A stretch of DNA of 31,353 bases from a virus: IMG/VR virus record IMGVR_UViG_3300031920_000321, positions 1 to 31,353 of that record. The stretch is one strand, 5' to 3'. How positions within the stretch are numbered: the stretch's first letter is position 1; every line of letters begins with the position of its first letter. The notes beneath the pieces were generated by a model. It worked only from the letters and a program-made list of their open reading frames with translations. It searched no databases and was not told where the DNA came from. Below are positions 1,690-21,828 of the stretch, piece after piece. The position numbers and the translations under genes are program-made.

Positions 1690-1718
1690 TTGACAGTGTT
1701 TTTAATACCTGATATACT
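1690..1718 (+). promoter_or_regulatory. Sigma70-like promoter of the plus-strand operon
   Basis: TTGACA (1690-1695), a 17-nt spacer ending in TGa (extended -10), then TATACT (1713-1718). It sits about 58 nt upstream of the first plus-strand ORF (1776). Confidence 0.55.
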
Positions 1719-1775
1719 AATGGTGTAAGTATAGTTTAATTAAAATAATAATAATTCCTAGGAAGGTAAACTAAT

Positions 1776-1922
1776 ATGAAAAAAACAATTAAAATATTTT
1801 TCACAGATGAAACTTTGCATTTGAAATTCAAAATAAAATGCACTGAAGATCAAATAGGTATGAGCGATAAAATTAAAGAACTCATAACAGAATATGTTAA
1901 TAGAAAAAGAATTAAAAAATAA
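1776..1922 (+). CDS. Small ribbon-helix-helix-like (CopG/Arc-type) protein, 48 aa
   Basis: Hand translation gives MKKTIKIFFTDETLHLKFKIKCTEDQIGMSDKIKELITEYVNRKRIKK. The pattern is beta-strand then two helices. GGAAGG lies 10 nt upstream of the ATG. It is the first gene after the strong promoter. It is below the ORF-track size cut-off. Confidence 0.45.
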   Translation: MKKTIKIFFTDETLHLKFKIKCTEDQIGMSDKIKELITEYVNRKRIKK

Positions 1923-1932
1923 ATAAATTAGT

Positions 1933-2808: not shown

Positions 2809-3391
2809 TTGGCAAAAAGCACAAAAATGGGAAAAGGAATGGCATTTTTCTTCCCAATTTAATCTTTATAACGAAGAAACAAAACAATATATCTATGCTT
2901 CTAAAATGGGGTTGGATAGATATAAGACAAATTATTTTAATCAAATTGGTTGGGACTTTGGTGATAAAAAAGTAATAGACATTGGTGGTGGAGAACAATC
3001 AATCTTGTTAAAGTCAAAAGCAAAAGAAAGAGTTGTTATTGATCCATTGCCTTATGCTAGGTGGATAAATATAAGATATATTGAGGCAGGAATAGAATTT
3101 AAACAAATAAAAGCAGAAGAATTAACTGTTGGGAAATATGACATAGCATTGATTTATAATGTATTGCAACATACTGAAGATCCTGCAAAGATTATAGAGA
3201 ATGTTAAAAAAATAAGTAAAGAAATCCATATCTTTGAATGGGTAGATACAGGAATATCAGAAGGACATATTCATAATTTGACAGAAGTAAAATTAAACGA
3301 CTGGTTAAACGGAGAAGGAAAAGTTGAAAATATTAATCAATATCCGTGTGTAAGCAAGGCTTATTATGGAATATTTAAAGGAAAAATATGA
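2798..3391 (+). CDS. Class I SAM-dependent methyltransferase
   Basis: Motif I VIDIGGGEQS and a later DIALIYNVLQHTEDP segment. It overlaps the previous stop and the next start (ATGA at 3388-3391). Confidence 0.7.
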   Translation: MITNWQKAQKWEKEWHFSSQFNLYNEETKQYIYASKMGLDRYKTNYFNQIGWDFGDKKVIDIGGGEQSILLKSKAKERVVIDPLPYARWINIRYIEAGIEFKQIKAEELTVGKYDIALIYNVLQHTEDPAKIIENVKKISKEIHIFEWVDTGISEGHIHNLTEVKLNDWLNGEGKVENINQYPCVSKAYYGIFKGKI

Positions 3392-4587
3392 AAAAATTTA
3401 GATTTCATTTACTCTCATTAGTTCATCTTCCACAAAGCACAGAATATATGTCTTGTGCTTTTACCCAGAAAAATCTTAAACTTTCGAAGATGTTAACTTC
3501 ACTCGGTCATACAGTTTACTTTTATGGTAGTGAAGGAAGTAATGTTGCAGAATATTGCAATAGCAAAAATTTAAAATTTATTGAAACACATAAATTAACT
3601 GACATCAGAAAAGATTATGGAACTGGAGATAATAGATTTGAAATAGGTTATGATTGGCATAGTACTGATTTCAAACACGACTTCAATTCTAAAAGAAATT
3701 TATCAACTCTGAAATATTATGCTAAATGTATTGAGCATATAAATAAAATTAAAAAACCTGATGATTTTCTTCTATGCACACAAGGATCATATTTACGACC
3801 GATTGCAGACGCTGTTAAGTTATATTTGACTTGCGAACCAGGTGTAGGATACAGAGGAAGCTATATGAAGTTTAGAGCATTTGAAAGTAGCTATATTCAG
3901 AATTTTACATACGGTTCAGAACATCCAAGACAATGCTCAAATGGTAATTTCTATGACAGGGTAATTCCAAATTATTTTGATCCAGATGACATAACATATT
4001 CTGATAAAAAAGAAGATTATTATTTCTTTATCGGTAGAATGATTAGTAGAAAAGGAATTATGATTGCATATAAAGCCTGCAAAGCAATCGGAAAGAAACT
4101 TATAATTGCGGGGCAAGGCGGAATTATTCAAGCAGATGGAAGTTTAGTTGGTCAATACAATGATTTTAGAATGCCAAAAGGAAATTGGGAATATGTCGGA
4201 TTTGTAAATGTTGAGCAACGGAAAAAACTAATGTCTAAAGCAATAGCAACATTTGTTCCGACTGTATATTTAGAATGTTTTGCTGGAACACATATTGAAA
4301 GTATGTTAGCAGGAACTCCTCCTATTACTACTGATTTCGGAGTTTTCCCAGGAACTATTCCAAATATATTAAATGGTAGAATAGGATTTAGATGTAATAC
4401 TCTTCAGGACTTTGTAGATGCTGCGAAGAAAGCACAAGATGTAAATCATATAGAAGTACGAAAATATGGAGAAAGATTCTTAATGGATAATGTAAAATTA
4501 GAATTTCAAAAATGGTTTGAAGATTTAATGAATGTTTATGAAAGTGTTGTAGATACAAAAAAGAAAGGTTGGCATAATATTAAATAA
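3388..4587 (+). CDS. GT-B fold glycosyltransferase (GT4/GT1-like)
   Basis: C-terminal domain motifs FFIGRMISRKGI...LIIAG and an E-x7-E-like LECFAGTHIESMLAGTPPITTDFG. Confidence 0.75.
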   Translation: MKKFRFHLLSLVHLPQSTEYMSCAFTQKNLKLSKMLTSLGHTVYFYGSEGSNVAEYCNSKNLKFIETHKLTDIRKDYGTGDNRFEIGYDWHSTDFKHDFNSKRNLSTLKYYAKCIEHINKIKKPDDFLLCTQGSYLRPIADAVKLYLTCEPGVGYRGSYMKFRAFESSYIQNFTYGSEHPRQCSNGNFYDRVIPNYFDPDDITYSDKKEDYYFFIGRMISRKGIMIAYKACKAIGKKLIIAGQGGIIQADGSLVGQYNDFRMPKGNWEYVGFVNVEQRKKLMSKAIATFVPTVYLECFAGTHIESMLAGTPPITTDFGVFPGTIPNILNGRIGFRCNTLQDFVDAAKKAQDVNHIEVRKYGERFLMDNVKLEFQKWFEDLMNVYESVVDTKKKGWHNIK

Positions 4588-6129: not shown

Positions 6130-6414
6130 ATGTCAAATAAAAACGCATTTGATGAAAATCTACGTAAATTAGAAGAAGAATCTGATAGACGAATGGACTT
6201 ATACTTTGACAAACAATTACTGATAAATGTTAAAAAACAAGATAATTCAATTAAACAAGCGATTAATGATCTTGTTTATGAACTCAACTCATTTGTCACA
6301 GATGCTTTCTATTTAGTTCAAATTATTATACTTGTAGCAATACTTATTATTGTTTGCATTGTCATTCCAGTTATATTGGTATTGTTTATTTTTCCCCAAT
6401 TAACTCATCAATAG
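6130..6414 (+). CDS. C-terminally membrane-anchored (tail-anchored) coiled-coil protein
   Basis: Charged N-terminal half, then FYLVQIIILVAILIIVCIVIPVILVLFIF. The start lies 1 nt after the previous stop. Its 3' end overlaps the convergent 586-aa ORF by 29 nt. Confidence 0.55.
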   Translation: MSNKNAFDENLRKLEEESDRRMDLYFDKQLLINVKKQDNSIKQAINDLVYELNSFVTDAFYLVQIIILVAILIIVCIVIPVILVLFIFPQLTHQ

Positions 6415-8146
6415 TTGCTGCTAAAAATGCTTTTGTACCAAGATAAAATGGAATTTTATCTGATTCTATCAAAGAATTAAATTTATTTAGTGTTTTAGAA
6501 GAAAATGATTTGAAAGCAACAGAGTCATACACTTTTTTGCCAAGTACTAATTTAACTCCTCCGACTCCTAGCATTTCACCACCTAAGCCAAGTAACCATT
6601 CTGTTTGGCCAATTGCAGGTATTTCTTTACCAGTATTAATAGATTGTCTCATTGCAGGTAATGCTTCTGTCAGCACTGCTATTCTTGTAACTTTGTCTTT
6701 CATTTCTGGTAAAGCTTTTTTTGTTCTTTCAAACAATTCTTTAGCAACAAGAGACGGTATAGAAATATCGTCTTTAGTCCTTGCTATTACTTTATTTTCA
6801 ACTTCTCTACTAAGATTTAATGCTAATTTTAATGCTTCATTTCTTGAAATAGATTTTTGGCCAGGTTTAATATATTTATTAACAATTATATCAACACTCG
6901 ACCTAGTAAGTAATTTGTAATCTTTAATCAATGGATCATATTTTGTAGTAGTTTTTTCTAATTCTTTTATTGCAGTATTAAACACTGATTTTTTGAAAGT
7001 CTCTATTTGAATAGTAGAGCTTTTTTTATTTAATGCTTTTTCAAGAATTGGAGTTAATTTATTTATTTCTTTTACAAATTTTGTATTAACATTATCTGCA
7101 TTCCAAGCAAACATTCGCTGTTTTGCAACATCCATTGCAATAGGATGCTTTGCAATATCTTCTTTAGACCTTCTTAAAATATTAATCCATAATTTTTCTT
7201 GAGCTTTTGCACTAGCTGCTGATACTACTTTACTAATTGGTTTAGCCATCATGCTAAACATTGACAAACCAACAGGAAATGCAGCACCAACAATAGCAGC
7301 TTCTTTTGCTTCTTTTCCAATTTCTCCTTCTTTAATAGCAGTTATGCCACCAAAACGAATTCCTTCTTTTATTGCTTTTGATACAGTTGGTTTAGATAAT
7401 ATTTTTGTACCTTTAGCTATTATATTTAACACCTTTGGATCTGTTGAAGAAACAACCTTTTCTGCGGTGCTTATAGTTTTGCTTACTACTTTTTCTACTT
7501 TGCTAATTGTCTTTGGTTTTATAACTTTTTCTAGAAACGCTAATCCTTTAGAAGCTGTTTTTGCTTTTCCGCCTGGATATGGAATAAAGAACTCTGCTAT
7601 TTCTTCAACACCTTTACCAAATTTCTCTGCTTTATTTTCTGCTTTAAATGCATCAATAGATCTAAAGTATTCAGAAGCAGTTGGAGTTTTAGGAGCTGGT
7701 GTAATACCAACTTTACCTAATGCATAATTTATTACTCTTCCGACAGTTGCTTCTAAACCTTTTTGGCCAAGTGAAGAGATACCTGCTAAAGTTTCTGCTG
7801 ATCCTTTAGTTATTCCAAGACCTACTCCTTTAATAGTTTCAGGCACAGTTAATTTTTCTTCAGGAGGCTTAGATATTATAGTAGGACCAAATGCACCTTC
7901 AACTGGTTTACCAGTATCTGCATATAATTTTCTTCCTTGAACTGTAATAGTTTTTCTTTCAGGTTTAGTTTCTTCTAAAGTTTCTTTTTGTGTAATTACT
8001 TTATCTTCAGGCACTTTTTGCCTACCTCGATATGCCCTATGCTTTCGCATTAATAGTAATCCTACTTCTCTGTCAGATTTCCCTGAATATTCAGTGCTAT
8101 TTGGATATCTATTTTTGGCTAAATTACCTAATTGTTCTACATTCAT
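6386..8146 (-). CDS. Large virion-module protein of unknown function (586 aa; possible internal or ejection protein)
   Basis: Last gene of the minus-strand structural operon. Lys-rich with hydrophobic segments (AAIVGAAFPVGLSMFSMMA; LLGLGGEMLGVGGV). No family recognised. Confidence 0.55.
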   Translation of the reverse strand: MNVEQLGNLAKNRYPNSTEYSGKSDREVGLLLMRKHRAYRGRQKVPEDKVITQKETLEETKPERKTITVQGRKLYADTGKPVEGAFGPTIISKPPEEKLTVPETIKGVGLGITKGSAETLAGISSLGQKGLEATVGRVINYALGKVGITPAPKTPTASEYFRSIDAFKAENKAEKFGKGVEEIAEFFIPYPGGKAKTASKGLAFLEKVIKPKTISKVEKVVSKTISTAEKVVSSTDPKVLNIIAKGTKILSKPTVSKAIKEGIRFGGITAIKEGEIGKEAKEAAIVGAAFPVGLSMFSMMAKPISKVVSAASAKAQEKLWINILRRSKEDIAKHPIAMDVAKQRMFAWNADNVNTKFVKEINKLTPILEKALNKKSSTIQIETFKKSVFNTAIKELEKTTTKYDPLIKDYKLLTRSSVDIIVNKYIKPGQKSISRNEALKLALNLSREVENKVIARTKDDISIPSLVAKELFERTKKALPEMKDKVTRIAVLTEALPAMRQSINTGKEIPAIGQTEWLLGLGGEMLGVGGVKLVLGKKVYDSVAFKSFSSKTLNKFNSLIESDKIPFYLGTKAFLAATIDELIGEK

Positions 8147-8150
8147 AAAA

Positions 8151-10718
8151 TTAAGCTAATCGATTATAATTGGCAAATCCTGTCATTTTACTAATTGGTA
8201 TTGCATGAGTAAGAATTTTCTCATCCAATTTGTAATTACTATCTTTAACTGTGGCAATACCATCTTTAATTGAAAGAATTATTCCAACATGACCAGTATC
8301 TTTATACGGCATAGTAAATACCATTCCTGGTTCTGGTGTAGTAATAGATTTATCCATCTTTGCCATTTTTGAAGCATAACTATCTCCTACACCTAAACCT
8401 GTTATGCTGTTAACAAATCTACCACATTGACCTCCTTTTTCACCATCTTCTTTTCCTACTAATGCAATTAAGGCTGAATTTGTGTCGCCTTCAACATTAC
8501 TAAAATCAGATAAAGCAGATATTGCTCTATCAGTAATCATTTTAATAACTCCCATTTCTTTAATGAATGCTTCCTTTGACATATTATATCCAATTACTTT
8601 GCCCTGTTTATTCAATACAGCTGCTCCACCAATGGAAGTTGCTGCATTTTGAAGCATTATTCTTTCTTGATCAGATAATGCACCAAGGGTGCCACCTCTT
8701 GCTTTTAATGCTATGAGGGTATCCATAGTTTCTTTAGATAATACTTGTTGAACTTTCAATATAACATCTTGAGTAGTTCCAAGTATTGCATGAGAAGTAA
8801 ATCCTACTGTCGCAGTTACCCCTGTTCCTGTGATGTTCTTTACTTGATCATCTGCAATTATACTATCGATAACAATATTTTTATCTTGTAAAGCAGCGAT
8901 CATAGAAGCATCTTCAGTACTAACATCTCCACCTGCACCAACTTTAATATCATATGCACCAGTGTTTGTATTCCACATGAAGACATCTTCACCAATCTTT
9001 ACAGTTTTACCTATGTTTGGATCTGCTTCTGCTTCTTCTCCGAAATCAACTGGTAATGCATATATTGAACCATCTGGGAAAGTAATATAATTCTCTACTG
9101 GTAATGTAGCAGCTTCTTCTTCAGTAATTGCCACGAATCCATCAAGTGCAAGATCTCTGTGGAATTTTAACATTTCCATCAAATCATCTTTTTCATTTTC
9201 ATCTAATACTCCTTGAATTTCTAATGCTTTAATTTCTAATTCTGCTGCATCGTATGCATCTTGTGCAGTATCTTTAGCAAGTTGATGTGCTCTATCCCAA
9301 TTACCTTGTGCAATAGATTGACGTATTTCAAGATTTGTCATTTCAGTAATTCTTTGACCTTCAAGTTTAGATTGTTCTGCATCAATAACATGACCAGATG
9401 CTAATCTATTAGCTATTCTAGTTTTTTCACCAGAATAGAATTCTTTTCTGTCTTGGATAGTTGTTTCTATCTCTGTAATTTTATCTGATTTGCCTTCAAG
9501 ATCTAATTCTTCTGCAGCAGTATCAAATGCTTCTTTTTTAATACCTACCATTTCTTTTATCTTATCAATGATTGATTGAAAAGCAGATTTTTGTTCCGGA
9601 GTTCCATCAGGAATAATTGTATCAGCATCAGTTGTTTCTGCTGTCGGAGTATATGTTCCCTTTGCAGTTTCATCTGCCATTTCAGCTCTACCTGTTCTTT
9701 CAAACCAATCATTTAACCAAGTGTTAGCTTCTGTTCCTGCTTTATATGGATCTTGTCCAGGGAATAATTTTTCAACTTCAGTTTGTACATCAGTTCTAGT
9801 TCCATAATAATCTACTAGAGTACCTCCTTCTGGTGCAGTAGTTTCAACTGGCACTGTAGGTGTGAATGTCCCCTTAGCTGCTTCATCTGCCATTTCAGCT
9901 TGACCAGTAGTAGACCACCAATTTTTTAACCATTCATTAGCTTCAGTTCCTTGTTGCAATGGATCTTGTCCTGGGAATTCAGCAGATGCTGCTGCAACTA
10001 CATCAGGTCGAGTATTATAATAATCAACTAAATCATCACCTGTAATTACTGCAATATCTTCTTCAAGTGGAATTTGTTCAGCCATTTCCGTTGCACCTGT
10101 CCGATTCCACCAATCATTTAACCAACGATTTGCAGCAGTTCCTTGTTTGAAAGGATCTTGACCAGGAAATGCTTTTGTAATAACAGACTGAACATCGGGT
10201 CTTTTATTATATGCATCAATTACTGCATTACCTGTGATTGCTGGTGCTTCTCGAGTAGTTTCTGTTGCCCAACTAAAATCAGACCAATCTTTATCAGACC
10301 ATTGTGATTGAGGTTTAGTTTTAATTAATGTTTCAATATTCTTTTGCTGAGTTGCATCAAGATCAGTTCTAAATGCAGGTATTTCAGCAATACCATCTAC
10401 ACCGAAACGTTGACCTAGTCCTGTTAATTCAGGAACTGTAATATCAGGTGACAATGGTTCTGGTTTGACATCACTAATCAAAGATCTTTTTGGAATTACT
10501 GTAATTGGTAAATTGTCACCATCACCTAAATCAAGACTAGTCTTATCAGAAACAGACGACGGTTTTTGTACTGTTGCTGGAGCAGAAGCCTTCCAGCCAG
10601 ATGCAAGATATTCATTATATTGTTCTGCTGGAACTTCCTTTTGACTTCCTCTACTACTCCAAACCAATCTTTTTTTTGGATTCCAAGAAGGAGTTATTCC
10701 TCCTATTGTTGTAGCCAT
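8151..10718 (-). CDS. Virion-associated peptidoglycan hydrolase; 855-aa protein with a C-terminal CHAP domain and three internal ~55-60-aa repeats
   Basis: The last ~100 aa carry GGQCGRFVN ... DTGHVGIIL ... KDSNY, a CHAP-like Cys-His-polar arrangement (nt ~8154-8458). The repeats carry the consensus YY.TR.DV....FPGQDP...GT.AN.WL.DWW..TG.AEMA (residues ~165-358). The centre is coiled-coil. Confidence 0.75.
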   Translation of the reverse strand: MATTIGGITPSWNPKKRLVWSSRGSQKEVPAEQYNEYLASGWKASAPATVQKPSSVSDKTSLDLGDGDNLPITVIPKRSLISDVKPEPLSPDITVPELTGLGQRFGVDGIAEIPAFRTDLDATQQKNIETLIKTKPQSQWSDKDWSDFSWATETTREAPAITGNAVIDAYNKRPDVQSVITKAFPGQDPFKQGTAANRWLNDWWNRTGATEMAEQIPLEEDIAVITGDDLVDYYNTRPDVVAAASAEFPGQDPLQQGTEANEWLKNWWSTTGQAEMADEAAKGTFTPTVPVETTAPEGGTLVDYYGTRTDVQTEVEKLFPGQDPYKAGTEANTWLNDWFERTGRAEMADETAKGTYTPTAETTDADTIIPDGTPEQKSAFQSIIDKIKEMVGIKKEAFDTAAEELDLEGKSDKITEIETTIQDRKEFYSGEKTRIANRLASGHVIDAEQSKLEGQRITEMTNLEIRQSIAQGNWDRAHQLAKDTAQDAYDAAELEIKALEIQGVLDENEKDDLMEMLKFHRDLALDGFVAITEEEAATLPVENYITFPDGSIYALPVDFGEEAEADPNIGKTVKIGEDVFMWNTNTGAYDIKVGAGGDVSTEDASMIAALQDKNIVIDSIIADDQVKNITGTGVTATVGFTSHAILGTTQDVILKVQQVLSKETMDTLIALKARGGTLGALSDQERIMLQNAATSIGGAAVLNKQGKVIGYNMSKEAFIKEMGVIKMITDRAISALSDFSNVEGDTNSALIALVGKEDGEKGGQCGRFVNSITGLGVGDSYASKMAKMDKSITTPEPGMVFTMPYKDTGHVGIILSIKDGIATVKDSNYKLDEKILTHAIPISKMTGFANYNRLA

Positions 10719-10743: not shown

Positions 10744-13700
10744 TTATATTGCTAATAAATTTTCTATTATTTCAAATCTTTCATCTGAAATATTTAATCT
10801 TTGTTCTAAAGTCTTAATATCTTTTTTATATTTATCAACAAGTTCTATCAACTCTTGGACAGCACTAACGGTTACACCAATTGTTCTTGTTAATTCTATG
10901 TCTTTTTCCCCAGTGTCTTTATCTGTCATTTTCATTTCATCAGGAAACTCATCTATTTCAAAGTAATGTCTTTTACCAGAATGATAATTCTTTCCTTCTT
11001 TTATTTTTGATTTCTTTATTTTTTTAAATATATCTATTCCTTTCTCAACAGTAGGCAATGCACAACCAAGATAATTATCTGAGTGGACTGCATACCATGC
11101 AATTCCTGTATATCCGAGTCGATATGTACTATCAGCAGTTGGTTGTAAGTCATCATTTATTCTAAAAACAGTTCCATCATGTCTAAAACTTTGAGATGTT
11201 CCATTCCAATAAATATATTGACCACTATCCATATAAAGATTTTGATCAAGATAAAGATGTCTCCACTTAAATGATGAATCGCCCAGGTCTTTTGCATTTG
11301 CAGCACTCGGCCTCCATTCTCCACCAACTACACCTCCTCCGTCTATATAAGATACTCCCGATAAATATATATTCCCAAACTTGTAAGAAGATGACCCTAA
11401 ATTGTAACCGTAACTCGTGCAATAATATGCGTCTGATTTAAAATAATGACTCGCTGTATTTGTATACATATACAGACCATCAGAAATTCCATACAAATAA
11501 TTCATCGTCCCGCCAGTCGGAGAATTGAAATAAAAAGTAGCAGTAGTTATTTGTATTCGTTCGTGATTACTACTATCATATACTCTTATAAAACCAGCTC
11601 CAACATACACCCTCGCACCTGAGGATGCAGTCTGATATAGTCCACCAGTAATCGTAACACCTGTAATTGACACACCGCTTATATCTCCACCATTTATTCT
11701 TGCAGCGTTCATAGTTCCTGCTGTAATTTTAGTAGCACTTAAACTTCCAATCTGTGCATCGGTGATTGTAGCATTCGCAATCTTCCCACTAGTAATTGTA
11801 AGATTAGATATTTGCGAAGCAGTAATTGTAAGATTTGCAATTTTGCTTGCTGTGATTGTTGTATTTGCTATATTTGTAGCTGTAATTGTGCTTGATGCAA
11901 TATCTGTACCAGTAATAGTAGCATTAGTGATATTTGTGCCAGTAATTGTACCTGAAGCTATTTGACTTCCTGTTATCGACGCTGATCCACTTATTTGAGT
12001 TGTAGTGATTGTTGCATTGGCTATCTGCGTAGCAGTTATTGTTGTGTTTGCTATATTAGATCCAGCTATCGTAGCAGAAGCAATTTGTGTGCCAGTAATT
12101 CCAGCAGTTGAACTTATTTGTGTTGTGGTTATAGATGCATTGGCTATTTCTGTTGCTGTTATAGTATTATTAACTATATTACTTGCTGCTATTGTTGTTG
12201 CGGCAATCTCTGTTCCAGTAATTGTGGCATTAGCTATTTGACCTGCTTGAATTGTATTATTTGCAATGTTGCTTCCTTCAATAGTAGTTGCAGCAATATT
12301 AGCACCTGTAATTGTTGCTGCTGCAATCTGGTCGCCACTAACATCTGTTGCATTCCAAATCAATTTATGAATACCTGCTGTATTTGTAGCAACTAAGACG
12401 TCTTCATTCGCTAAAGTAGGTAATGTTGCAGATTTTTGAAAAGTCGTTGTACTTAATGAAAAATCCCACCAAATATATTTTAAATTTGTATTGCTATTTG
12501 TTATTGTGTATGTAGTGCCATTATAATCAACAGTAACATCTGACCAAGCAACTGAACTACCGTCTGGTGAATCATCAGTAAATGTACCACTGATTACAAT
12601 AAGAGGTAATGATACTTTTCCAATAGTAATAGTGTTATTAGTAATGTTATCACCTGTGATAGTAGCAGAAGCAATTTCAGAACCTGTGATAGTAGCAGAA
12701 GCAATTTGAGTAGCAGTAATTGTATTATTGATAAGATTACCACCTGCAATAGTAGAATTTGCAATTAAAGCACCAGTTATCGCTGCTAATGCAATTTGAG
12801 TTGCACCAATAGTATTATTAACAAGATTTCCACCTGTTATAGTTGTATTAGCAATTTGTGAACCTACTATTCCAGCTGCATTAGCTAATTGACTACCAGT
12901 AATAGCAGCGGTGGCTGAAATATTTGTGGCAATAATAGTAGCATTTGCTATTTGTGTAGTAGTAATCGCACCATTTCCGATTTGCGTTGCGGTGATAGTT
13001 GCGTTTGCGATGTTTGCTGCTTCAATTGTAGTACCAGCTATTTGAGTCCCCGTGATGGTAGCATTTGCAATCTGACCTCCTGTAATTCCTGCTGTATTAC
13101 TTATTTGAGTAGCGGTAATTGTCGCATTGGTTATATTCCCAGCATCTATTGTCGTAGCAGCAATCTGTGCACCTGTAATGGTAGCGTTTACAATATTTCC
13201 AGCTTCTATAGTAGTAGCCCCGATATTGCTTCCTGCAATAGTAGCATTGGCAATCTGCGTTCCCGTAATACCAGCAGTGCCACTAATTTGAGCAGATGTT
13301 ATAGTTGCGTTTGCAATTTCTGTTGCTGTAATAGTCGCAGTTGCTATCTGTGAAGCTGTAATAGTAGAATTAACAATATTTCCTGCCTCTATTGTAGCAC
13401 TAGCGATATTAGATCCAGCAATAGTTGCATTAGCGATTTGAGTTCCTGTTATAGTAGCATTAGCTATTTCATTGGCTGTTATGGTCGCAGCAGTTATGTT
13501 TGTAGCTGTAATGGTTGCATTTGCAATTTGAGTACCAGTTATTGTAGCAGATGCAATTTCAGCTGCGGTAATTGTAGCACCTACTATATTATCATTAGTA
13601 ATTGTGTTATCTTCTATGTCATTACCAGTGACACTAACACCACCTTCATTTTGCATTACACTCCAAGAAGATGGAAGAATTAACTCATCCATCAAAGGTG

Positions 13701-13749
13701 CATCAACAATATCTTTCTTATATAATATATCAATCTTTACGTTTGCCAT
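10744..13749 (-). CDS. Tail fibre/spike protein (1001 aa) with two long pentapeptide-like repeat blocks and a C-terminal chaperone-like coiled coil
   Basis: Ile/Leu/Val occurs every fifth residue over residues ~46-376 and ~473-700 (units such as ATITG-TQIAN). A ~95-aa insert lies between the blocks. Fibre-type motifs LGSSSYKFGNIYL and DLGDSSFKWRHLYL follow. The C-terminal ~110 aa end in a heptad-like helix. Confidence 0.8.
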   Translation of the reverse strand: MANVKIDILYKKDIVDAPLMDELILPSSWSVMQNEGGVSVTGNDIEDNTITNDNIVGATITAAEIASATITGTQIANATITATNITAATITANEIANATITGTQIANATIAGSNIASATIEAGNIVNSTITASQIATATITATEIANATITSAQISGTAGITGTQIANATIAGSNIGATTIEAGNIVNATITGAQIAATTIDAGNITNATITATQISNTAGITGGQIANATITGTQIAGTTIEAANIANATITATQIGNGAITTTQIANATIIATNISATAAITGSQLANAAGIVGSQIANTTITGGNLVNNTIGATQIALAAITGALIANSTIAGGNLINNTITATQIASATITGSEIASATITGDNITNNTITIGKVSLPLIVISGTFTDDSPDGSSVAWSDVTVDYNGTTYTITNSNTNLKYIWWDFSLSTTTFQKSATLPTLANEDVLVATNTAGIHKLIWNATDVSGDQIAAATITGANIAATTIEGSNIANNTIQAGQIANATITGTEIAATTIAASNIVNNTITATEIANASITTTQISSTAGITGTQIASATIAGSNIANTTITATQIANATITTTQISGSASITGSQIASGTITGTNITNATITGTDIASSTITATNIANTTITASKIANLTITASQISNLTITSGKIANATITDAQIGSLSATKITAGTMNAARINGGDISGVSITGVTITGGLYQTASSGARVYVGAGFIRVYDSSNHERIQITTATFYFNSPTGGTMNYLYGISDGLYMYTNTASHYFKSDAYYCTSYGYNLGSSSYKFGNIYLSGVSYIDGGGVVGGEWRPSAANAKDLGDSSFKWRHLYLDQNLYMDSGQYIYWNGTSQSFRHDGTVFRINDDLQPTADSTYRLGYTGIAWYAVHSDNYLGCALPTVEKGIDIFKKIKKSKIKEGKNYHSGKRHYFEIDEFPDEMKMTDKDTGEKDIELTRTIGVTVSAVQELIELVDKYKKDIKTLEQRLNISDERFEIIENLLAI
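11650..13626 (-). repeat. Coding tandem repeats of period 15/30 nt (pentad repeats of the fibre), interrupted at 12334-12621
   Basis: Coordinates derived from residue numbering of the 1001-aa ORF. The repeats generate several spurious Cys/Ile-rich ORFs on the opposite strand. Confidence 0.8.
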
Positions 13750-13750
13750 A

Positions 13751-15226
13751 CTAGTTACTTAAATAATGACCGAATATTTTAATTTTTCTAACTTTTACTG
13801 TATTCGTAGTAGATCCATTTACATAATCATACTTCAATTTAAAATTATCACATTCTTTGTTTGGATAAAAACTTTTTCTAATGATTGTCGCACCATCTCC
13901 AGTATGAGATATTGTCCCAATAGAAGCAGAATTAGCAACTACAAGATCTGGTAAAATATTTATATCCATTCTTGCACCAGTTGACATTGGATAAATATCT
14001 ACAAGAATTTCACTAATCATTCCATGCTTATTACCTTTGGTTACATCAAACACTAATGAATATGCCTCTGAATTTACATCAAGACCAGATGCTTTAGCTA
14101 ATTGATATGCAGATGCTCCGTCATGTGAAGCAATCATCAATGTTCCAAAAGGATTTCCTAATCCACCAACTTCTGATAAACCTCCATCCATTAAATTGAA
14201 TAGCACTGGAGGAACTACTTTTTTGTTTAATGTACCCCATGAATATACTTTATGGTTTGAAATCCAATTAAGTATACCACCTTGTTTTGTTACTTGATAA
14301 TATAAAGGCATAGAACCTTCATAACTTTCTAATTCTTGAATCATATTACCATTAACATATCCTAATTTATATCCTCCGTCTGCATTTTCTTCTTGATACC
14401 ATACATATACTATACCATTATCTGCTAACAATGCTCCAATCCTTCCCTTGATTATAACATAACTTCCCCACGTTGTTGCTACTCCATTCCATGTATATAT
14501 TGCTGCTTCGTTAGAATTATTACCAGCAATCGCAGGATAATTAACTCCTATAAAATACCAATCGTTTGTTTTTGTTAAAGCTGCTACTTCTGAACCTGCC
14601 TTGAAATCAAGACCAGCATCTCCTGTACCAATATCTAAAGTTGTTCCATCATATGTTCCTACATATCTACCATTACCAAATGCTATCTTATCAGCAACAA
14701 TCATTGATGGATGAGGTGCATTATTTAATGATGCTGCACCAGCTGGTTGAGTGCTAAAGAAATCTACATCCATTGAGTTTGTAGCAACTGTAAGTTTTAA
14801 GCAATCTCCTGCATCGCCACTATGATTATAAAAACCATAAACATCTTCTTGATAAACAATAATACTTTCACCCAATTCTCCAGTAACTGCTGCCTTATCT
14901 ATTGTTTGAGGATAAGCAGTTGTTACCACTGAAGCTGCTTTAATTTTATAAAGTAAATTGCCACCTATTGCAAAAGCAACATCTGCTGAAGCAACCGTTG
15001 GTGTAATTCCTTTTATCAAAGTAGTAACTGAAGCAGAATTTGCTAATTTAGCAAGGCCTGGACCTTGTTGAAAACAATTTGGATCACTCATATCAATTGT
15101 CTTCATATCATTAAATTGATTTTTATTTCCTACAAAGACATTATCATTCTTATACCAAGCAGGAATAAAACCTCCGAATGGTGCGGAAATTTCTATATAA
15201 AATTCTTCTTTAGTTGGATTTGCCAT
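13751..15226 (-). CDS. Structural (tail/baseplate-like) protein of unknown family, 491 aa
   Basis: Long ORF in the structural module with beta-rich composition. Its stop lies 1 nt from the fibre start codon. Confidence 0.55.
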   Translation of the reverse strand: MANPTKEEFYIEISAPFGGFIPAWYKNDNVFVGNKNQFNDMKTIDMSDPNCFQQGPGLAKLANSASVTTLIKGITPTVASADVAFAIGGNLLYKIKAASVVTTAYPQTIDKAAVTGELGESIIVYQEDVYGFYNHSGDAGDCLKLTVATNSMDVDFFSTQPAGAASLNNAPHPSMIVADKIAFGNGRYVGTYDGTTLDIGTGDAGLDFKAGSEVAALTKTNDWYFIGVNYPAIAGNNSNEAAIYTWNGVATTWGSYVIIKGRIGALLADNGIVYVWYQEENADGGYKLGYVNGNMIQELESYEGSMPLYYQVTKQGGILNWISNHKVYSWGTLNKKVVPPVLFNLMDGGLSEVGGLGNPFGTLMIASHDGASAYQLAKASGLDVNSEAYSLVFDVTKGNKHGMISEILVDIYPMSTGARMDINILPDLVVANSASIGTISHTGDGATIIRKSFYPNKECDNFKLKYDYVNGSTTNTVKVRKIKIFGHYLSN

Positions 15227-15411: not shown

Positions 15412-16458
15412 TTAGAAAAGTAAAAAAAAGTTTCCTTGTGCTGTTGGTGCAGACGGAGTTTCTTCATCTCCGTATGTCAATAAAGTATCTCTGCCAGTAT
15501 TGTTAGTTGCTTTCATCCATGCTGCTGATCTAAGAGAAGTTGAAATTCTAACTTCATCAACTAGACCTAAAAAATAACCTGCTCCAGATGAATGCTCGCC
15601 AACTGCAAATGGTCTTAATGTTGCTAAACCTGGACCAATAGCAGCAGAAGAATCTTCTAATGCACCATCAATATATAACCTTGCTGTCGGTGTACCAGAC
15701 GGATCCCATGTTACAGCAACATGATACCATGCATTATCCTGTATCAGAGTAGTCGATACGACATCCTGAGCTGACCCACTTGTTGAACCTTGTACTTGAC
15801 CATCGTCATAATCAGAGACACTAATAACCAAATATCCTTCTAAAGAAACAATATAACGAACAGATTCATCTGCAACGCCTGGTGTTTTGCAAAAACATTC
15901 TAATGTTGCACCGTATGTAGTGAAATCTGCTGCAGCAAAGGGATTTGCTACTGAATGTATTCTATCATTAGAACCATCAAACGATTGTCCTTTTGCAATT
16001 ATACCAGCTGTTTCTATTGGTTGATTTGCGGCTACTTTTGTGCCATCAAAACTATTAGAAGTGCTATCTTCAACTGTAGAAGTAGTCAAATCTTTCATGT
16101 GATATACCAACCCAAAGTATGCATCCCAAGTATTAGCTGGGTCAGCACCATCAGCAGTATCAGTCGTTCTATAATATACATAAATATCAGTATCTGTTGC
16201 AGAAGCGATAGTTGGTACTTTTACCCAATACTCTGCCAAATCACTTGCATCATCGTGTCTTTCTCTTTCATACTTCAAAAGAGTTTCACCGTCCGAACTG
16301 GTAAATCTAATATCAAATCCATCTGTATTTGCTTTGGAAAAATCTAATCTTGCACTTGTTAATGCTACAAGAATTGGAAAATCCGATAAAGCAGAATCAA
16401 TTTTTGTGCAATCGATTGTCAATTTACGCCTAGTTGTATATCCTGCTAAAAATCCCAT
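15412..16458 (-). CDS. DUF2341-like N-terminal domain plus concanavalin A-like lectin (LamG) domain protein; probable receptor- or glycan-binding protein
   Basis: N-terminus RRKLTIDCTKIDSALSDFPILV...DGFDIRFTSSDGETLLKYERE...YWVKVPTI...DIYVYY matches the DUF2341 pattern. The C-terminal half (GQSFDGSNDRI...WYHVAVTWD...LYIDG...GLVDEVRIS) matches the LamG/Laminin_G_3 pattern. Confidence 0.7.
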   Translation of the reverse strand: MGFLAGYTTRRKLTIDCTKIDSALSDFPILVALTSARLDFSKANTDGFDIRFTSSDGETLLKYERERHDDASDLAEYWVKVPTIASATDTDIYVYYRTTDTADGADPANTWDAYFGLVYHMKDLTTSTVEDSTSNSFDGTKVAANQPIETAGIIAKGQSFDGSNDRIHSVANPFAAADFTTYGATLECFCKTPGVADESVRYIVSLEGYLVISVSDYDDGQVQGSTSGSAQDVVSTTLIQDNAWYHVAVTWDPSGTPTARLYIDGALEDSSAAIGPGLATLRPFAVGEHSSGAGYFLGLVDEVRISTSLRSAAWMKATNNTGRDTLLTYGDEETPSAPTAQGNFFLLF

Positions 16459-16853: not shown

Positions 16854-18104
<1,251 letters not shown>

Positions 18105-18127
18105 ATTTGTAAGTTATTTATTATTTG

Positions 18128-18198
18128 CAGTAAGGAAAGGGATCGAACCTTTGTCTTTCGTTTTGGAGACGAATATTCTACCATTAAAATACCAAACT
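18128..18198 (-). tRNA. tRNA-Trp (anticodon CCA)-like gene with an imperfect acceptor stem
   Basis: The hand-folded cloverleaf has these parts. T arm AAAGG-UUCGAUC-CCUUU. Anticodon arm UUCGU-CUCCAAA-ACGAA. D loop AAUGGUA with a 3-bp stem. U8 and G73. Acceptor AGUUUGG/CCUUACU pairs at 5 of 7 positions, with U-U mismatches at 4:69 and 5:68. No encoded CCA. Confidence 0.55.
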
Positions 18199-18202
18199 GT
18201 GT

Positions 18203-18901
18203 TTAATCATCAAACAATTCTCTAGTAGGATATTGTTTACCAACTTCTGCAGGATTTTTAAATCTTAGAGGATAGTTTAATTCTCTACTTGCCAATTCTT
18301 TTGCCATGATTTCTATTCTACCATAAAATTGTTTTTCCATTCTATCTGCTCTGTCCCATACTTCATATCTTTCACATGCTTTACCTGCAGCATATACTGC
18401 CATGTCATCATGATAATCTTCAGGAATAACTGATATATCACCAGAATTTACTAATGCAGAAGGTCTGGCAATATAATATATTTGACCACCTTTCGTAGAT
18501 AATACAGTAGGTTTAGGTCTAATTCTCATATAGTTATTAGTAATATCAACTATTGGATTTGATGTACTTACACCTTCTTCTTCACTAGTATGCTGTATCT
18601 CAGTTGGATTATAACCGGAAGCAATAGAATAATCACTATCTGTAGTAGGTGTTGTATATGCTAATCTTAATTGTTTGAACTTGAGTAAATCAGTCGGTAA
18701 TTGATACAAGCCAGAGTTTGCTGCTAAATTAAAAGTTGTTTTCTGTTCTTCAAAGTAGTCTTCATTAACTCTAATTATTCTCATAACCATTTTTAATTGA
18801 GCATCATTAAGATGCCGATCAATTTCAGCATTTGTTAATCTGGTTGTATCAGATATATTTGATTTGAATCTCACTTGAGATCTTAATGTGGCTAAATTCA
18901 T
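18203..18901 (-). CDS. Putative head-tail adaptor/connector-like structural protein, 232 aa
   Basis: Its position follows the capsid genes and the sugar cassette. The N-terminal pattern LATLRSQVRF...LTNAEIDRHLNDAQ resembles head-tail connector families. This assignment is tentative. Confidence 0.45.
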   Translation of the reverse strand: MNLATLRSQVRFKSNISDTTRLTNAEIDRHLNDAQLKMVMRIIRVNEDYFEEQKTTFNLAANSGLYQLPTDLLKFKQLRLAYTTPTTDSDYSIASGYNPTEIQHTSEEEGVSTSNPIVDITNNYMRIRPKPTVLSTKGGQIYYIARPSALVNSGDISVIPEDYHDDMAVYAAGKACERYEVWDRADRMEKQFYGRIEIMAKELASRELNYPLRFKNPAEVGKQYPTRELFDD

Positions 18902-18910
18902 AATTGTATG

Positions 18911-19975
18911 TTATAGGTTTAATATAAAATCTGACCATCGACTAACATGTGCCGACATATCATACTTTTTAATTGAATCATTATATGCATTTTCGCCAAT
19001 TCTCTTTCGTTCCTTTTCATTTTCTATTAAATAGCTAAGACCACATACCCAATCATCATCTGTTTCTGCTAATATGCCAGTATGTCTATTCAATACATTA
19101 GTATAATGATGAGCAGAATATACTGCGGGAATCTTGTTAATGCTATATTCTAAATATTTGCATTGGCTTTTACATTTATTAAAAAAGTTCTTCTGCAATG
19201 GTGCTATTGCAATATCTGCTTGAAGTGCTGCTAATTTATATGGCCATATATTGCCAGGCACTGCTAAAATGTTTTCACGATTATTAGGTATTCCTTCCCA
19301 TAAATCATCACCATATATAAATTTTGCTTGTAAATCGTCTGTTTTAACACCACCGTCACCGACATAAATAAATTTAACATGTGGATATTTTTCTAAAATC
19401 CTTTTCATTATTGGTTTGAATTTCAGTAGATCACCTTTATGACTTGTACTTCCTGCCCAAAGTAAGCGTATCATATCTGAATGATTTGGTTTATATTCTT
19501 TTAGCCAATGAGTAATATCAAGATAATTGTCAAAAACTAATGATTTTTTTGCAAGCCAACCATACTGTTTCTTTAAAGTTTCATTAGTTGTAATAAAACC
19601 ATCACAGTGTCGTAAACAATTTATTATTTCTTTCCATACTTTCGTTTTGTTTTTGAAACCTTTTATACTATCATAACTATAATGAGTCTTTGGTACTGTA
19701 TGTATTAAATCATCACATTCAAATACTACTTTTTTTCCTAATTTTTTACATAACTTAACAATTGCTGCAGAAAATACCATTTCTAATATTACAATATCTG
19801 ACCATTGGATATGTTGTTCCATTTGCTGGTCATTGCTATCTGATAATATAACTTCATGACCAAGCGATTGCATATACTTCAATTGTGGTATCATTCGATA
19901 ATACCTTGAACCTGAGCCATTATGTATTGCATAGATCTTTAACTTTGTAGTAGTTATCATTGTAGATGTGTTCAT
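18911..19975 (-). CDS. Probable GT-B fold glycosyltransferase, 354 aa
   Basis: The C-terminal half carries LLWAGSTSHKGDL...FIYVGDGG and IAIAPLQKNFFNKCKSQCKYLEYSINKIPAVYS, which resemble GT-B donor-binding-domain patterns. It overlaps the upstream gene by 4 nt. Confidence 0.55.
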   Translation of the reverse strand: MNTSTMITTTKLKIYAIHNGSGSRYYRMIPQLKYMQSLGHEVILSDSNDQQMEQHIQWSDIVILEMVFSAAIVKLCKKLGKKVVFECDDLIHTVPKTHYSYDSIKGFKNKTKVWKEIINCLRHCDGFITTNETLKKQYGWLAKKSLVFDNYLDITHWLKEYKPNHSDMIRLLWAGSTSHKGDLLKFKPIMKRILEKYPHVKFIYVGDGGVKTDDLQAKFIYGDDLWEGIPNNRENILAVPGNIWPYKLAALQADIAIAPLQKNFFNKCKSQCKYLEYSINKIPAVYSAHHYTNVLNRHTGILAETDDDWVCGLSYLIENEKERKRIGENAYNDSIKKYDMSAHVSRWSDFILNL

Positions 19976-20703
19976 TTTGTATGTCTTAAAATTGAATCGA
20001 GTAAATAATCATGCCCGTATTGTTTTTCAAGTAATTTTGCATTGGGTATTTGACAATGTCCACCAATCACATCGTTCTCTGGTAAATACAATATTGGTCG
20101 AATTACTTCAGGTTTGCCTAATTTCATATAACCAACATTATAACTATTATTCCATTCTGTCATTACTGCTTCAAAGCTTAAATTTTCTTTTTCACACAAT
20201 TTATTAGCATACGAATGAAAAGCAATGCACGTTGCATAATAAGTAGTTGATAATAGTTTTGCTAGTTCAGTCGTTTTTGATTTATGTACAATTTGCGGTA
20301 TCATTCCTATTTCTTCAAAATGCTCTGCTACTAATCTACCTGCACCAGCAAAATCTGCACCAATGTATTTTACAAATGTTTTAATGCCATCATATAAATT
20401 AGGATGGACACCTCTAACGGGAGAATGCACAGCAAATTTATACTCAAGTTTTTCAGTTGTACCCACTGGTACTGATGAATGAATTATTACCAAAGGTTTA
20501 TAATTATCAATATGCACTTTGACAATGTCTATAAAGTTATCACTATACGGAATACACACATGCAATATATCTAATTTATCAGGAAAATCGGAAGTATCAA
20601 TCTCTTCGACATATACTTGGCAATTGTTTTTTCCAACGTAGAATTTGCCGATTGCTTTGCCAACTTCACCATTTCCTAACAATCCAATATTTTTCTTAAT
20701 CAT
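19972..20703 (-). CDS. NAD(P)-binding nucleotide-sugar dehydrogenase-like protein (short UDP-glucose/GDP-mannose dehydrogenase family-like)
   Basis: N-terminal GxGxxG (IGLLGNGEVGKAIG), LHVCIPY, and a GGHCQIPNAKLL segment resembling the catalytic GGxC(F/L)PKD motif. At 243 aa it is shorter than canonical family members. Confidence 0.5.
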   Translation of the reverse strand: MIKKNIGLLGNGEVGKAIGKFYVGKNNCQVYVEEIDTSDFPDKLDILHVCIPYSDNFIDIVKVHIDNYKPLVIIHSSVPVGTTEKLEYKFAVHSPVRGVHPNLYDGIKTFVKYIGADFAGAGRLVAEHFEEIGMIPQIVHKSKTTELAKLLSTTYYATCIAFHSYANKLCEKENLSFEAVMTEWNNSYNVGYMKLGKPEVIRPILYLPENDVIGGHCQIPNAKLLEKQYGHDYLLDSILRHTK

Positions 20704-20719
20704 ATTTAAATGTTATGAC

Positions 20720-21025
20720 TTAGTTTCTTGATAACGTACCTATGATTGCTTGCATTGTTGCAAGTAATTCTAAGTTACCAGCAGTTTCATTTTTAACAAC
20801 AGTAACTGTATTTCCATCTGTTTCAATTATAATTTGTCTTTTTGGTTGAGCATTAATTGGACCAGGTGCAGGAATTTCTACTTGTTTTTCAAGTATTGTT
20901 TTCTTTGGAGATTCTTTAACGTCTTCTCTTATTTTTTTAGCATTTGATTTTTTACCCATAATATTTTTATTAATATTAGTTAAATTATTTTTAGAATTCA
21001 TCAGTTTCTTCAATACAATTGACAT
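20720..21025 (-). CDS. Hypothetical small basic protein, 101 aa
   Basis: ORF within the sugar cassette with a Lys/Asn-rich N-terminus. The start codon is uncertain (several in-frame Met). Confidence 0.45.
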   Translation of the reverse strand: MSIVLKKLMNSKNNLTNINKNIMGKKSNAKKIREDVKESPKKTILEKQVEIPAPGPINAQPKRQIIIETDGNTVTVVKNETAGNLELLATMQAIIGTLSRN

Positions 21026-21150
21026 TATAACTTGATGAAGTTGGTCTGTTTACATTATCTACGTTACCACTGAAATTAAATGTTCTTTTTTCCTTTTCTA
21101 ATTTTTGAACAACTTTAATCAATTCCTCTAAAGTGTCCATTGTTATATTT

Positions 21151-21828
21151 TTATTTACTTTCATGATTTATATTCCTTTCTAGTTTATTTATCTCAACAT
21201 AGTCTTCACTTATAAATCCAAATGAAGCATCTGCTGGAACATTAGTAATTATATTTTGATAACATGCATCTAAATTATTTTTAACATTTGGTGAATATCC
21301 ACAATGTCCATGACCAACTATTATATCAGTATCAGGTAACATCTCTTCGAACGACCAATTGTTTTGAAATGTTTTTGTTCCTTCTGGTACATTACGTGGG
21401 TGATTACTATTAATCGCTACAATATATCCTTTATCTCGTAATGCTACAAATGCATCATATGAATATTGCCAATAAGGAGCACAACATATCTTCTTATAAT
21501 TTAATCCAATTCGTTCAAACATATTTTCAGATGCTGTCAACATTGTCATAATAGTATCGTACGGTTTGGTCATTTCGAAATGAGTATGAGCAAAGCCATG
21601 CAAACCAATTTCTAACCATTCATAACTATTTATAACTTCTGCCCATTTTTTATATTTTTCTACTTTAAAATGTTTTTGATTGCCAGGTTGAAAGAATTCT
21701 TTTGGAAAAGGTATTGTAAAAGCAGTCATTTTAAAGTCAGGTATAAGACGTTGCATTCTTATTATTTCATCCATGCCTGGCATTAGAAATCCAAAATCAT
21801 GTACATCCATGTAAAATTTATTTGGCAT
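21151..21828 (-). CDS. Polysaccharide deacetylase-like (DUF2334/NodB-type) metal hydrolase
   Basis: DVHDFG near the N-terminus, GLHGFAHTH mid-protein and VGHGHCGY later give an Asp/His pattern like carbohydrate-esterase-type deacetylases. Tentative. Confidence 0.4.
   Translation of the reverse strand: MPNKFYMDVHDFGFLMPGMDEIIRMQRLIPDFKMTAFTIPFPKEFFQPGNQKHFKVEKYKKWAEVINSYEWLEIGLHGFAHTHFEMTKPYDTIMTMLTASENMFERIGLNYKKICCAPYWQYSYDAFVALRDKGYIVAINSNHPRNVPEGTKTFQNNWSFEEMLPDTDIIVGHGHCGYSPNVKNNLDACYQNIITNVPADASFGFISEDYVEINKLERNINHESK

Follow-up and report, generated by a model that had tools for sequence, protein, structure and literature searches.

Pentapeptide-repeat proteins, among them MfpA, Qnr, HetL, Np275/276 and the designed β1 proteins, form right-handed quadrilateral β-helices from contiguous five-residue units in which a small residue occupies position i−2 and an aliphatic residue is buried at the centre i; known members include cytoplasmic DNA mimics and regulators, and those with solved structures have 5–10 coils. 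Membership requires eight contiguous repeats, the published consensus of a unit reads (A/C/S/V/T/L/I)(D/N/S/K/E/I/R)(L/F)(S/T/R/E/Q/K/V/D)(G/D/E/N/R/Q/K), and HetL and Rfr23 are examples in which loops are inserted into the helix (PMC8145042). Phages are not mentioned in that review, which appeared in 2021 (PMC8145042). Two further systems bear on the present locus, i.e. the tail of phage SU10 (Kuravirus), which comprises an adaptor, long and short fibres and a nozzle and in which the short tail fibre gp16 is a 322-aa protein with a helical proximal, a central and a T4-gp37-like tip domain (PMC9509320), and HMW1, which is modified with mono- and di-hexoses at N-X-S/T sequons (PMC3012730, PMC10507012). 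Here we describe a 1001-aa tail fibre encoded on the minus strand of a 31,353-nt stretch of DNA, positions 1 to 31,353 of the IMG/VR virus record IMGVR_UViG_3300031920_000321 (hereafter the window), the late part of the genome of an SU10-like short-tailed phage from a metagenome.

Compared with the described systems, the fibre gene is an ordinary, well-preserved member of a known repeat family, namely an Ile-centred decapeptide variant of the pentapeptide clan that serves as a phage shaft. Taken as a whole, the protein is probably a tail fibre of modular build with an Ile-centred pentapeptide shaft, its abundant sequons stemming from the register of the repeats.

Repeat anatomy and clan membership of the fibre shaft

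The fibre open reading frame (ORF) and its parts are as follows, with the predicted local distance difference test (pLDDT) values taken from AlphaFold2 (AF2) models.

10744–13749, minus strand: tail-fibre ORF, 1001 aa, matching the PHROG tail-fibre families phrog_892 (1.8e-25), phrog_7660 and phrog_16534
13618–13749, minus strand: non-repetitive N-terminal ~44 residues, AF2 pLDDT <50
12607–13623, minus strand: repeat block 1, residues 43–381, 67 units, ~17 predicted coils, 20 sequons
12334–12606, minus strand: inserted ~91-aa β-rich globular module with a 'KYIWWD' motif, residues 382–472, AF2 pLDDT ~85, β strands
11644–12333, minus strand: repeat block 2, residues 473–702, 45 units, ~11 predicted coils, 12 sequons
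11113–11643, minus strand: non-repetitive Gly/Tyr/Ser-rich distal region, residues 703–879, AF2 pLDDT 30–50
10744–11112, minus strand: C-terminal tail module, residues 880–1001, ending in a predicted long helix (961–999)

The same fibre protein was also found on a 30-kb contig assembled from run SRR1971621. A first-pass annotation, made from the letters of the window alone, had read positions 11650–13626, corresponding to residues 42–700, as a fibre of about 100 pentapeptide-like repeats with Ile/Leu/Val recurring strictly every fifth residue over residues ~46–376 and ~473–700, and both the periodicity and the number of repeats were borne out. The Ile/Leu/Val autocorrelation over the two stretches peaked solely at lags 5 (0.18), 10 (0.17) and 15 (0.15–0.17), with 0.00–0.05 at all remaining lags, and no period-5 signal was detected in residues 377–472 or 701–1001. 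Chaining of the hydrophobic anchors yielded 67 units in residues 43–381 and 45 units in residues 473–702, 112 altogether, with Ile at the centre of 107, Leu of three, and Val and Met of one each. The insert between the blocks, put at ~95 aa in the annotation, spans residues 382–472, i.e. ~91 aa by the anchor chain and ~96 by the annotation's own limits. The occasional six-residue slips noted in the annotation were located at six places (ISGTAGI 155, ISNTAGI 216, ISATAAI 277, LANAAGI 288, ISSTAGI 545 and ISGSASI 586), all of the type I-S-x-T/S-A-G/A-I or near to it, and one eight-residue spacing was found at residue 667 in addition.

Two unit types, A-T-I-T-G and T-Q-I-A-N, alternate along the shaft, and the real period is the decapeptide A-T-I-T-[A/G]-[T/S/G]-[N/Q]-I-A-N, with 30-nt tandem arrays at the DNA level (Tandem Repeats Finder). 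Spacings from slip to slip were 61, 61, 11, 41 and 81 residues, four of the five being n × 20 + 1, which in a coil of 20 residues would bring the extra residues on top of one another at a single corner. Longer repeats are superimposed on the decapeptides: residues 96–278 (12916–13464, minus strand) hold a 61-residue super-repeat in three copies that are 62–72% identical, and a 41-residue super-repeat occurs twice in residues 506–587, with 73% identity between its copies. All these copies close on a one-residue slip, which gives rise to the n × 20 + 1 spacings. The length of a pentapeptide shaft can change in exact five-residue steps, and in-frame deletions of 75 bp and 375 bp in phage pentapeptide genes have been reported (PMC5690320, PMC11053796).

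Judged by sequence, the repeats belong to the pentapeptide-repeat clan. They run contiguously over 67 and 45 units, interrupted by six one-residue slips and one three-residue slip, and hence exceed the eight units asked of the superfamily. The match to Pfam family PF13599 (Pentapeptide_4), whose gathering score is 38, reached 46.2 bits (E 4.8e-12, best stretch residues 606–667), while the 'Decapeptide repeat region' family PF25296 gave 36.7 bits, below its cut-off of 45. In-register NCBIfam matches were obtained to HetL (1e-19), Alr5209 (3e-13), Qnr (1e-8) and MfpA (8e-5), the models of proteins with solved quadrilateral β-helix structures, and also to DotG and PipB/PipB2. A phmmer search of the PDB retrieved designed and natural pentapeptide proteins at E values of 1e-12 to 7e-5 (4yfo at 1e-12, also All3740 and Np275/276), and a profile of 33 repeat segments retrieved DotG (6e-24), the designed 4yfo (1e-14) and Np275/276 (2j8k, 1e-6). 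These PDB and NCBIfam matches align on block 1. Block 2 was matched by the designed pentapeptide protein 4yei (E 3e-11), in an alignment extending into '...GVTITGGLYQTASSGARVYVG' against '...GATVDPVLWRTASLVGARVDV'; the end stretch of block 2 alone, compared with the C-terminal end of designed pentapeptide proteins, gave a weak and non-significant match.

Relatives of the shaft are numerous. Among 8000 candidates scored, at least 1446 carried related repeats at E ≤ 1e-5, many of them on 20–70 kb contigs and many within phage tail modules, and a DNA pattern for T-I-T-A-x-x-I-A-x-x-T-I occurred in at least 120 IMG/VR contigs; a related-locus search of IMG/VR with the whole fibre protein returned no relatives. 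Many of the 1446 or more carry PF13599 and/or PF25296 in their precomputed annotation, several being named 'YjbI with pentapeptide repeats' by JGI, and all 11 contigs inspected were phage tail modules, either short-tailed with SU10-type genes or long-tailed with tape-measure genes. With such PF25296/JGI-annotated tail-fibre proteins the fibre shares the decapeptide consensus (..IANATITxTQ..), the tail-module context and the modular partners (LamG, fn3, Peptidase_S74, Gly-rich and prophage-tail domains), and it differs from them in scoring below the PF25296 cut-off and in belonging to a minority, sequon-rich sub-type. The 491-aa protein encoded directly upstream of the fibre has 94 metagenome relatives and is conserved in related short-tailed phages, the downstream fibre genes of which are highly variable; only few of the 94 are followed by a decapeptide-repeat fibre and the others mostly by fibres of other kinds, indicating that fibre modules are exchanged freely. 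The first-pass annotation had regarded the architecture as one not commonly described for phage fibres. This is true of the literature, given the silence of the 2021 review on phages and our finding no paper that describes the architecture under 'decapeptide repeat' tail fibres or PF25296, and PDB sequence searches likewise gave no tail fibre on a pentapeptide-repeat solenoid; it is not true of nature, in which the architecture is common and already covered by Pfam and COG annotation.

Predicted fold and modular architecture

Structures were predicted as AF2 monomers and read from the secondary-structure string and the β-ladders. The full-length model reached a mean pLDDT of 58; the insert stood at ~85 and block 1 at 70–80, and the C-terminal third remained at <50. 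The best model of residues 40–260, built on an alignment of repeat segments, had a pLDDT of 91.5 and a predicted template-modelling score of 0.84. This fragment model is a β-solenoid with β-ladders that recur every 20 residues and that, as the C-terminus of the fragment is approached, break every five residues. The breaks were confined in both models to positions i+1, i+2 and i−2, apart from a few at i in the full-length one, and never fell on i−1; at the centre i the ladder was unbroken in all 41 units of the fragment and broken in 4 of 97 in the full-length model, in which 30 of the 31 Asn at i+2 fell in ladder breaks, i.e. turns. Ile residues five apart cannot share one side of a straight strand, and burying all of them would take a kink per pair, four for every 20 residues. 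The 20-residue ladders, the positions of the breaks, the Ile spacing and the slip spacing fit together in a four-cornered coil of four pentapeptides. We think it likely that the repeats fold as a pentapeptide-type solenoid.

In the architecture proposed here, a short conserved N-terminus would attach the fibre to the tail. Consistent with such an attachment role of the N-terminal ~44 residues, the first ~45 are 78–89% identical to those of three homologues (P0002, P0015 and P0005) whose downstream parts differ. The shaft would be made of two stacks of Ile-centred pentapeptide repeats, A-T-I-T-G alternating with T-Q-I-A-N, folded as a right-handed pentapeptide-type β-solenoid with four units (20 residues) per coil and a core filled by Ile together with the small residue at i−2. 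β-Solenoids usually rise by ~4.8 Å per coil, at which the stacks of ~17 and ~11 coils would extend over ~8 nm and ~5 nm. In one unit type Asn would be preferred at the turn position i+2, and Thr would point outward at i−1 of the next unit. The A-T-I-T-G units of the two blocks (within 11644–13623, minus strand) would put two outward Thr ranks (T-x-T) on two opposite faces of the solenoid, a predicted pattern reminiscent of the Thr arrays of insect antifreeze β-helices.

The shaft would be broken by the ~91-aa globular module, which is mobile among relatives, being present in 1–4 copies in 22 of 120 homologues. This module matched no Pfam family, but shares 46% identity with a portion of a tail fibre, that of Terrisporobacter phage TVCOM_ph1; tblastn against isolated phage genomes found the insert alone, because the repeats are masked as low complexity. 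The region distal to the shaft (residues 703–879) differs between close relatives and, from its position, is likely the receptor-binding part. At the end of the protein, AF2 predicted helices at 961–983 and 988–999, and the C-terminal 120–185 residues recur in relatives always at the extreme C-terminus (P0005 64%, P0048 44% identical), making this conserved helical module a candidate trimerisation or assembly domain. No Pfam match even at E up to 10 and no PDB sequence relative were found for residues 701–1001, and a Peptidase_S74 domain, considered on account of a '...HSDNYLG...' motif, was rejected after neither S74 nor any other Pfam family matched the C-terminus.

Thus conceived, the fibre departs from the known pentapeptide-repeat proteins in its Ile centres, in Thr/Gln/Asn instead of Asp/Asn at i−1, in its strict decapeptide alternation, in a predicted length of ~28 coils, in the 91-aa folded domain that splits the stack, in its place on the virion, and in that structure comparison has not confirmed its fold. 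Several observations weigh against the assignment. The centre is Ile and not the consensus Leu/Phe, and position by position the published consensus is fitted by 88, 35 (i−1), 3 (centre), 66 and 64 of the 112 units; that consensus is descriptive, however, and Ile is chemically equivalent at the buried position, on which ground the fibre is filed as an Ile-centred clan variant and not as a canonical member. Periodic sequences of low complexity can, besides, score too highly against one another. Of the models, the full-length one is poor (pLDDT 54–71 in block 2), and the four remaining fragment models had a pLDDT of 56–78. When the PDB was searched with both models and BFVD with the fragment, Foldseek gave no match at E ≤ 0.001 (best E 0.02 and 0.29 in the PDB, 4e-3 in BFVD), and the best 50 matches of each list included no pentapeptide-repeat structure, the top matches listed being generic β-solenoids (Ag43, PL6 lyases, HxuA, curli and tailspikes). 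We suspect that strictly periodic structures are masked or down-weighted by Foldseek, and treat this null result as uninformative and not as evidence against the fold. The pentapeptide reading of the first-pass annotation is therefore upheld at the level of sequence, and the structure prediction it had called for returned a confident solenoid of 20-residue coils in the best fragment model, but the quadrilateral fold itself was not confirmed by Foldseek.

A further point on the same side is that the predictions are of monomers, while most phage fibres are trimers. Three chains might intertwine in a trimeric shaft, as a triple β-helix or β-spiral nucleated by the C-terminal helical module, and the likeness to pentapeptide repeats would then be convergent periodicity. 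Such a shaft would suit the ~40-residue predicted helix that ends the always-terminal C-terminal module, the disagreement of the AF2 monomer models among themselves and the lack of pentapeptide folds among the Foldseek matches; part of block 2 with the residues following it also weakly matches the SU10 short tail fibre gp16 (7z4b, E 1e-4), the central domain of which was modelled as a trimer, although this similarity is marginal and SU10 has no long pentapeptide shaft. We nevertheless hold an intertwined trimer to be improbable, as the repeats align in register with many independent pentapeptide-repeat proteins and families, the top fragment model of a single chain is confident with its 20-residue ladders, the n × 20 + 1 slip spacings suit a 20-residue coil, and no Peptidase_S74 chaperone signature is present; to our knowledge, the repeats of known triple β-helices are longer than five residues per face. 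A structure of the probable pentapeptide-type shaft would extend the range of shafts described for phage receptor-binding proteins by a new type.

Origin of the sequons

The sequons counted by hand in the first-pass annotation proved exact, with 20 in block 1 and 12 in block 2; the whole protein has 36, of which 15 are N-A-T. Compared with composition-preserving shuffles, both blocks are enriched (block 1: 20 versus 10.1 ± 2.5, z 3.9, with none of 5000 shuffles reaching 20; block 2: 12 versus 6.8 ± 2.0, z 2.6), an about two-fold excess over composition. This excess vanished when residues were shuffled within the columns of the decapeptide, which yielded 17.3 ± 2.0 versus 20 in block 1 (P = 0.13) and 11.7 ± 1.7 versus 12 in block 2 (P = 0.54). 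It is the product of two independently conserved columns, Asn at i+2 and Thr at i−1 of the next unit, and 27 of the 32 in-repeat sequon Asn lie at the exposed corner i+2, in the T-Q-I-A-N unit. The simplest reading is that the sequons are a structural signature of a repeat sub-family, with a corner Asn and a Thr ladder on the face, and not independent evidence of glycosylation. The annotation's own caveat, that the richness might simply reflect the β-helix repeat, is thus the best fit to the data.

Within the repeat family the density of sequons is bimodal. Some homologues (P0059, P0105, P0053 and others) have 0–1 sequons in more than 500 repeat residues while still containing 4–6% Asn and 11–16% Thr, fewer sequons than their composition suggests, and in IMG/VR the majority of the decapeptide fibres sampled carry fewer than two per 100 repeat residues. 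GC content was considered as a cause of the Asn richness and ruled out, the sequon-rich loci having 34–60% GC and many low-GC loci being sequon-poor.

Sugar genes and layout of the window

The other genes of the window, listed from its right end, include two clusters of sugar genes.

28523–30239: small and large terminase
28523–29836: large-terminase ORF
26786–28498: SU10-type portal
24631–25545: capsid protein
18911–24475, minus strand: sugar-gene cassette between the capsid and adaptor genes, 5.6 kb, of glycosylation type, with a double-GT2 (GT, glycosyltransferase family), a methyltransferase, a GT2, a deacetylase-like ORF (faint match), a 101-aa ORF, a weak nucleotide-sugar dehydrogenase-like ORF and a weak GT1-like glycosyltransferase
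18203–18901: SU10-type adaptor
16854–18104, minus strand: collagen-like fibre with G-D-T-G-x-x collagen-type repeats, local GC up to 0.43
15412–16458: LamG/DUF2341 protein
13751–15226, minus strand: conserved 491-aa protein, directly upstream of the fibre gene
8151–10718, minus strand: 855-aa protein with a C-terminal CHAP peptidoglycan-hydrolase domain, downstream of the fibre
6386–8146: 586-aa protein
1933–4587, plus strand: second sugar cluster, with an NAD-dependent epimerase/dehydratase, a methyltransferase and a GT4-type glycosyltransferase, opposite in strand to the late genes

The first-pass annotation had named the fibre a prime candidate substrate of these sugar genes, with a cytoplasmic HMW1C-type enzyme as the modifier. 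In the HMW1/HMW1C system of Haemophilus and Actinobacillus the substrate is, as proposed here, a long surface fibre of β-solenoid type that is made in the cytoplasm and bears dozens of sequons, and multiple sequons are indeed present on the fibre here (36, 32 of them in the repeats). The systems differ in the enzyme, and in that the sequons of the fibre are fixed positions of a structural repeat: GT41, the family of HMW1C and the N-glycosyltransferases (NGT), was found neither in Pfam scans of 29 window ORFs nor in an NCBIfam scan of ten that included every glycosyltransferase, no NGT was among the PDB sequence matches of the three largest glycosyltransferases, and no STT3 oligosaccharyltransferase was found in the window ORFs scanned (Pfam, NCBIfam). 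An HMW1C mechanism encoded in the window is therefore not supported by the sequence, the neighbours being generic GT2, GT4 and GT1-like enzymes.

By their matches, the genes of the cassette are generic polysaccharide-type enzymes that form a separate block. The nearest solved relatives of the double-GT2 are chondroitin synthase, the wall-teichoic-acid enzymes TarS and TarP, SpsA and heparosan synthase; together with the GT4 it resembles small-molecule and polysaccharide or teichoic-acid enzymes, and the GT1-like protein has no PDB relative. NCBIfam matches of the sugar enzymes were of polysaccharide type (TuaG, EpsD, PglI, WcaA), all far below equivalog cut-offs. In the related contig L212, a close relative in architecture whose fibre is also sequon-rich, the corresponding interval (1564–4273) holds just two small ORFs between capsid and adaptor and no sugar genes, and the cassette of the window, lacking a counterpart there, looks like an inserted accessory block.

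One comparison among relatives speaks against a purely structural origin of the sequons. Loci were counted if one of their flanks reached at least 6 kb, and were classed as rich at ≥3 sequons per 100 aa; a GT2 lay within 10 kb of the fibre in four of nine sequon-rich but in none of 31 sequon-poor loci (Fisher P = 8.5e-4 for 4/8 rich; with L212 added, 4/9, a hand-computed one-sided P of ~1.4e-3), as detected with a home-made hidden Markov model on flanks of uneven length in loci that are not phylogenetically independent. The positive loci are the window, L002, L003 and L004; of these, L004 belongs to a long-tailed phage that is unrelated and has 59% GC. The sequons may thus be not purely structural, and the split into rich and poor fibres, the rich ones partly accompanied by GT2, is a testable lead on fibre glycosylation. 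A shared 'fibre-specific' GT2 orthologue was considered and ruled out, the window GT2 being only generically similar to those of L002, L003, L004 and L178. Large ORFs of ~970–1130 aa containing GT2 also stand upstream of the fibre in three short-tailed phage contigs (L002:1948–5340, L178:3001–5967 and L133:4352–7258), and the large protein of L002 combines TPR (faint match), Methyltransf_24 and GT2 matches.

Whether the phage's own glycosylation genes act on the fibre, decorating the Asn of N-X-T or the abundant surface Thr in the cytoplasm before assembly to give a glycan-coated fibre, has to be judged on this mixed evidence. In its favour, the fibre is the only strongly enriched protein among the 30 window ORFs counted, holding 36 of their 87 sequons (3.6 per 100 aa, z 4.6, where most others have ≤1), the cassette with its GT2, GT1-like, sugar-nucleotide and methyltransferase genes sits within the structural module, a nearby GT2 is commoner among rich relatives including the unrelated L004, and the bimodal density is not explained by GC. 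A precedent exists in the mycobacteriophages Che8 and its relatives, whose virion proteins are, according to papers citing the work, thought or shown to be decorated by glycosyltransferases of the phage (Freeman et al. 2023, as cited in PMC12619734, PMC11256854). The mycobacteriophage glycans sit on the C-termini of capsid and tail-tube subunits, whereas the target proposed here would be the fibre shaft. Ser/Thr-rich C-termini mark the glycan-bearing subunits of those phages; the window has glycosyltransferases, its capsid has no such tail, and no tail-tube gene was identified in its SU10-like module. Against the fibre as substrate stand the absence of GT41 and STT3 from the 29 ORFs scanned, the likeness of the GT4 and double-GT2 to enzymes acting on other substrates with no PDB relative for the GT1-like one, the loss of the sequon excess once the repeat columns are kept, the Asn being a predicted turn residue, the non-orthology of the window GT2 to those of L002, L003 and L178, and the weaknesses of the flank test named above. 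Moreover, L157 carries an L003-type GT2 (292 aa, 80% identical) but its fibre lacks these repeats, and five sequon-rich relatives (L008, L009, L118, L029 and L212) have no glycosyltransferase gene nearby. We therefore regard the fibre as an unlikely substrate of these genes, and consider it doubtful to the same degree that it is glycosylated at all; what survives of the earlier proposal, as indirect support, is the sequon density of the fibre and the company of GT2. Should such fibres be glycosylated, it would bear on host recognition and on the evasion of antibodies or defence. Far less probable still is N-glycosylation at the sequons, in the cytoplasm, by phage-encoded GT2/GT1-like enzymes that are neither GT41 nor oligosaccharyltransferase, for the sake of which a sub-family of tail fibres would have retained Asn-X-Thr at the corners of its pentapeptide-type solenoid. 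This would amount to a new protein N-glycosylation system, and no phage receptor-binding fibre of this kind would have been glycosylated before it.

A cassette unrelated to the fibre has considerably better prospects, if slightly short of an even chance. It would modify envelope glycopolymers of the host, changing receptors or excluding other phages, or else another virion protein or DNA. This agrees with the solved relatives of the double-GT2 and the polysaccharide-type NCBIfam matches, with the sequon-rich fibre of L212 that does without a cassette, and with the variation of the cassette enzymes between relatives; DNA glucosylation and serotype conversion are listed as common roles of phage glycosyltransferases (PMC12619734). 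It agrees less well with the position of the cassette in the middle of the late structural operon and on the strand of the structural genes, with the statistical co-occurrence of sequon-rich fibres and GT2, and, as regards another virion protein, with a capsid that lacks the Ser/Thr-rich C-terminal tail of glycosylated mycobacteriophage capsids. For the sequons themselves, origin from the repeat register within a probable pentapeptide-type shaft remains the reading we prefer.

Some further features of the window were observed. The 855-aa CHAP protein, which may be a virion-associated lysin, carries three tandem ~75-aa repeats (..RPDV..FPGQDP..QGT.AN.WLN.WW..GxAEMA). A tRNA-Trp gene (anticodon CCA) lies at 18127–18198 (minus strand) within the structural operon, between the SU10-type adaptor and collagen-like fibre genes. 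Two ORFs, at 29667–30239 and 31004–31306 (both minus strand), match the gp3 DNA-packaging (small terminase) family, and the former overlaps the 5′ end of the large-terminase ORF by ~170 nt. Between the leftward and rightward gene blocks, an AT-rich stretch of ~1.25 kb at ~490–1750 (GC ~0.29) is devoid of ORFs ≥60 aa and may have a regulatory function or serve as an origin.

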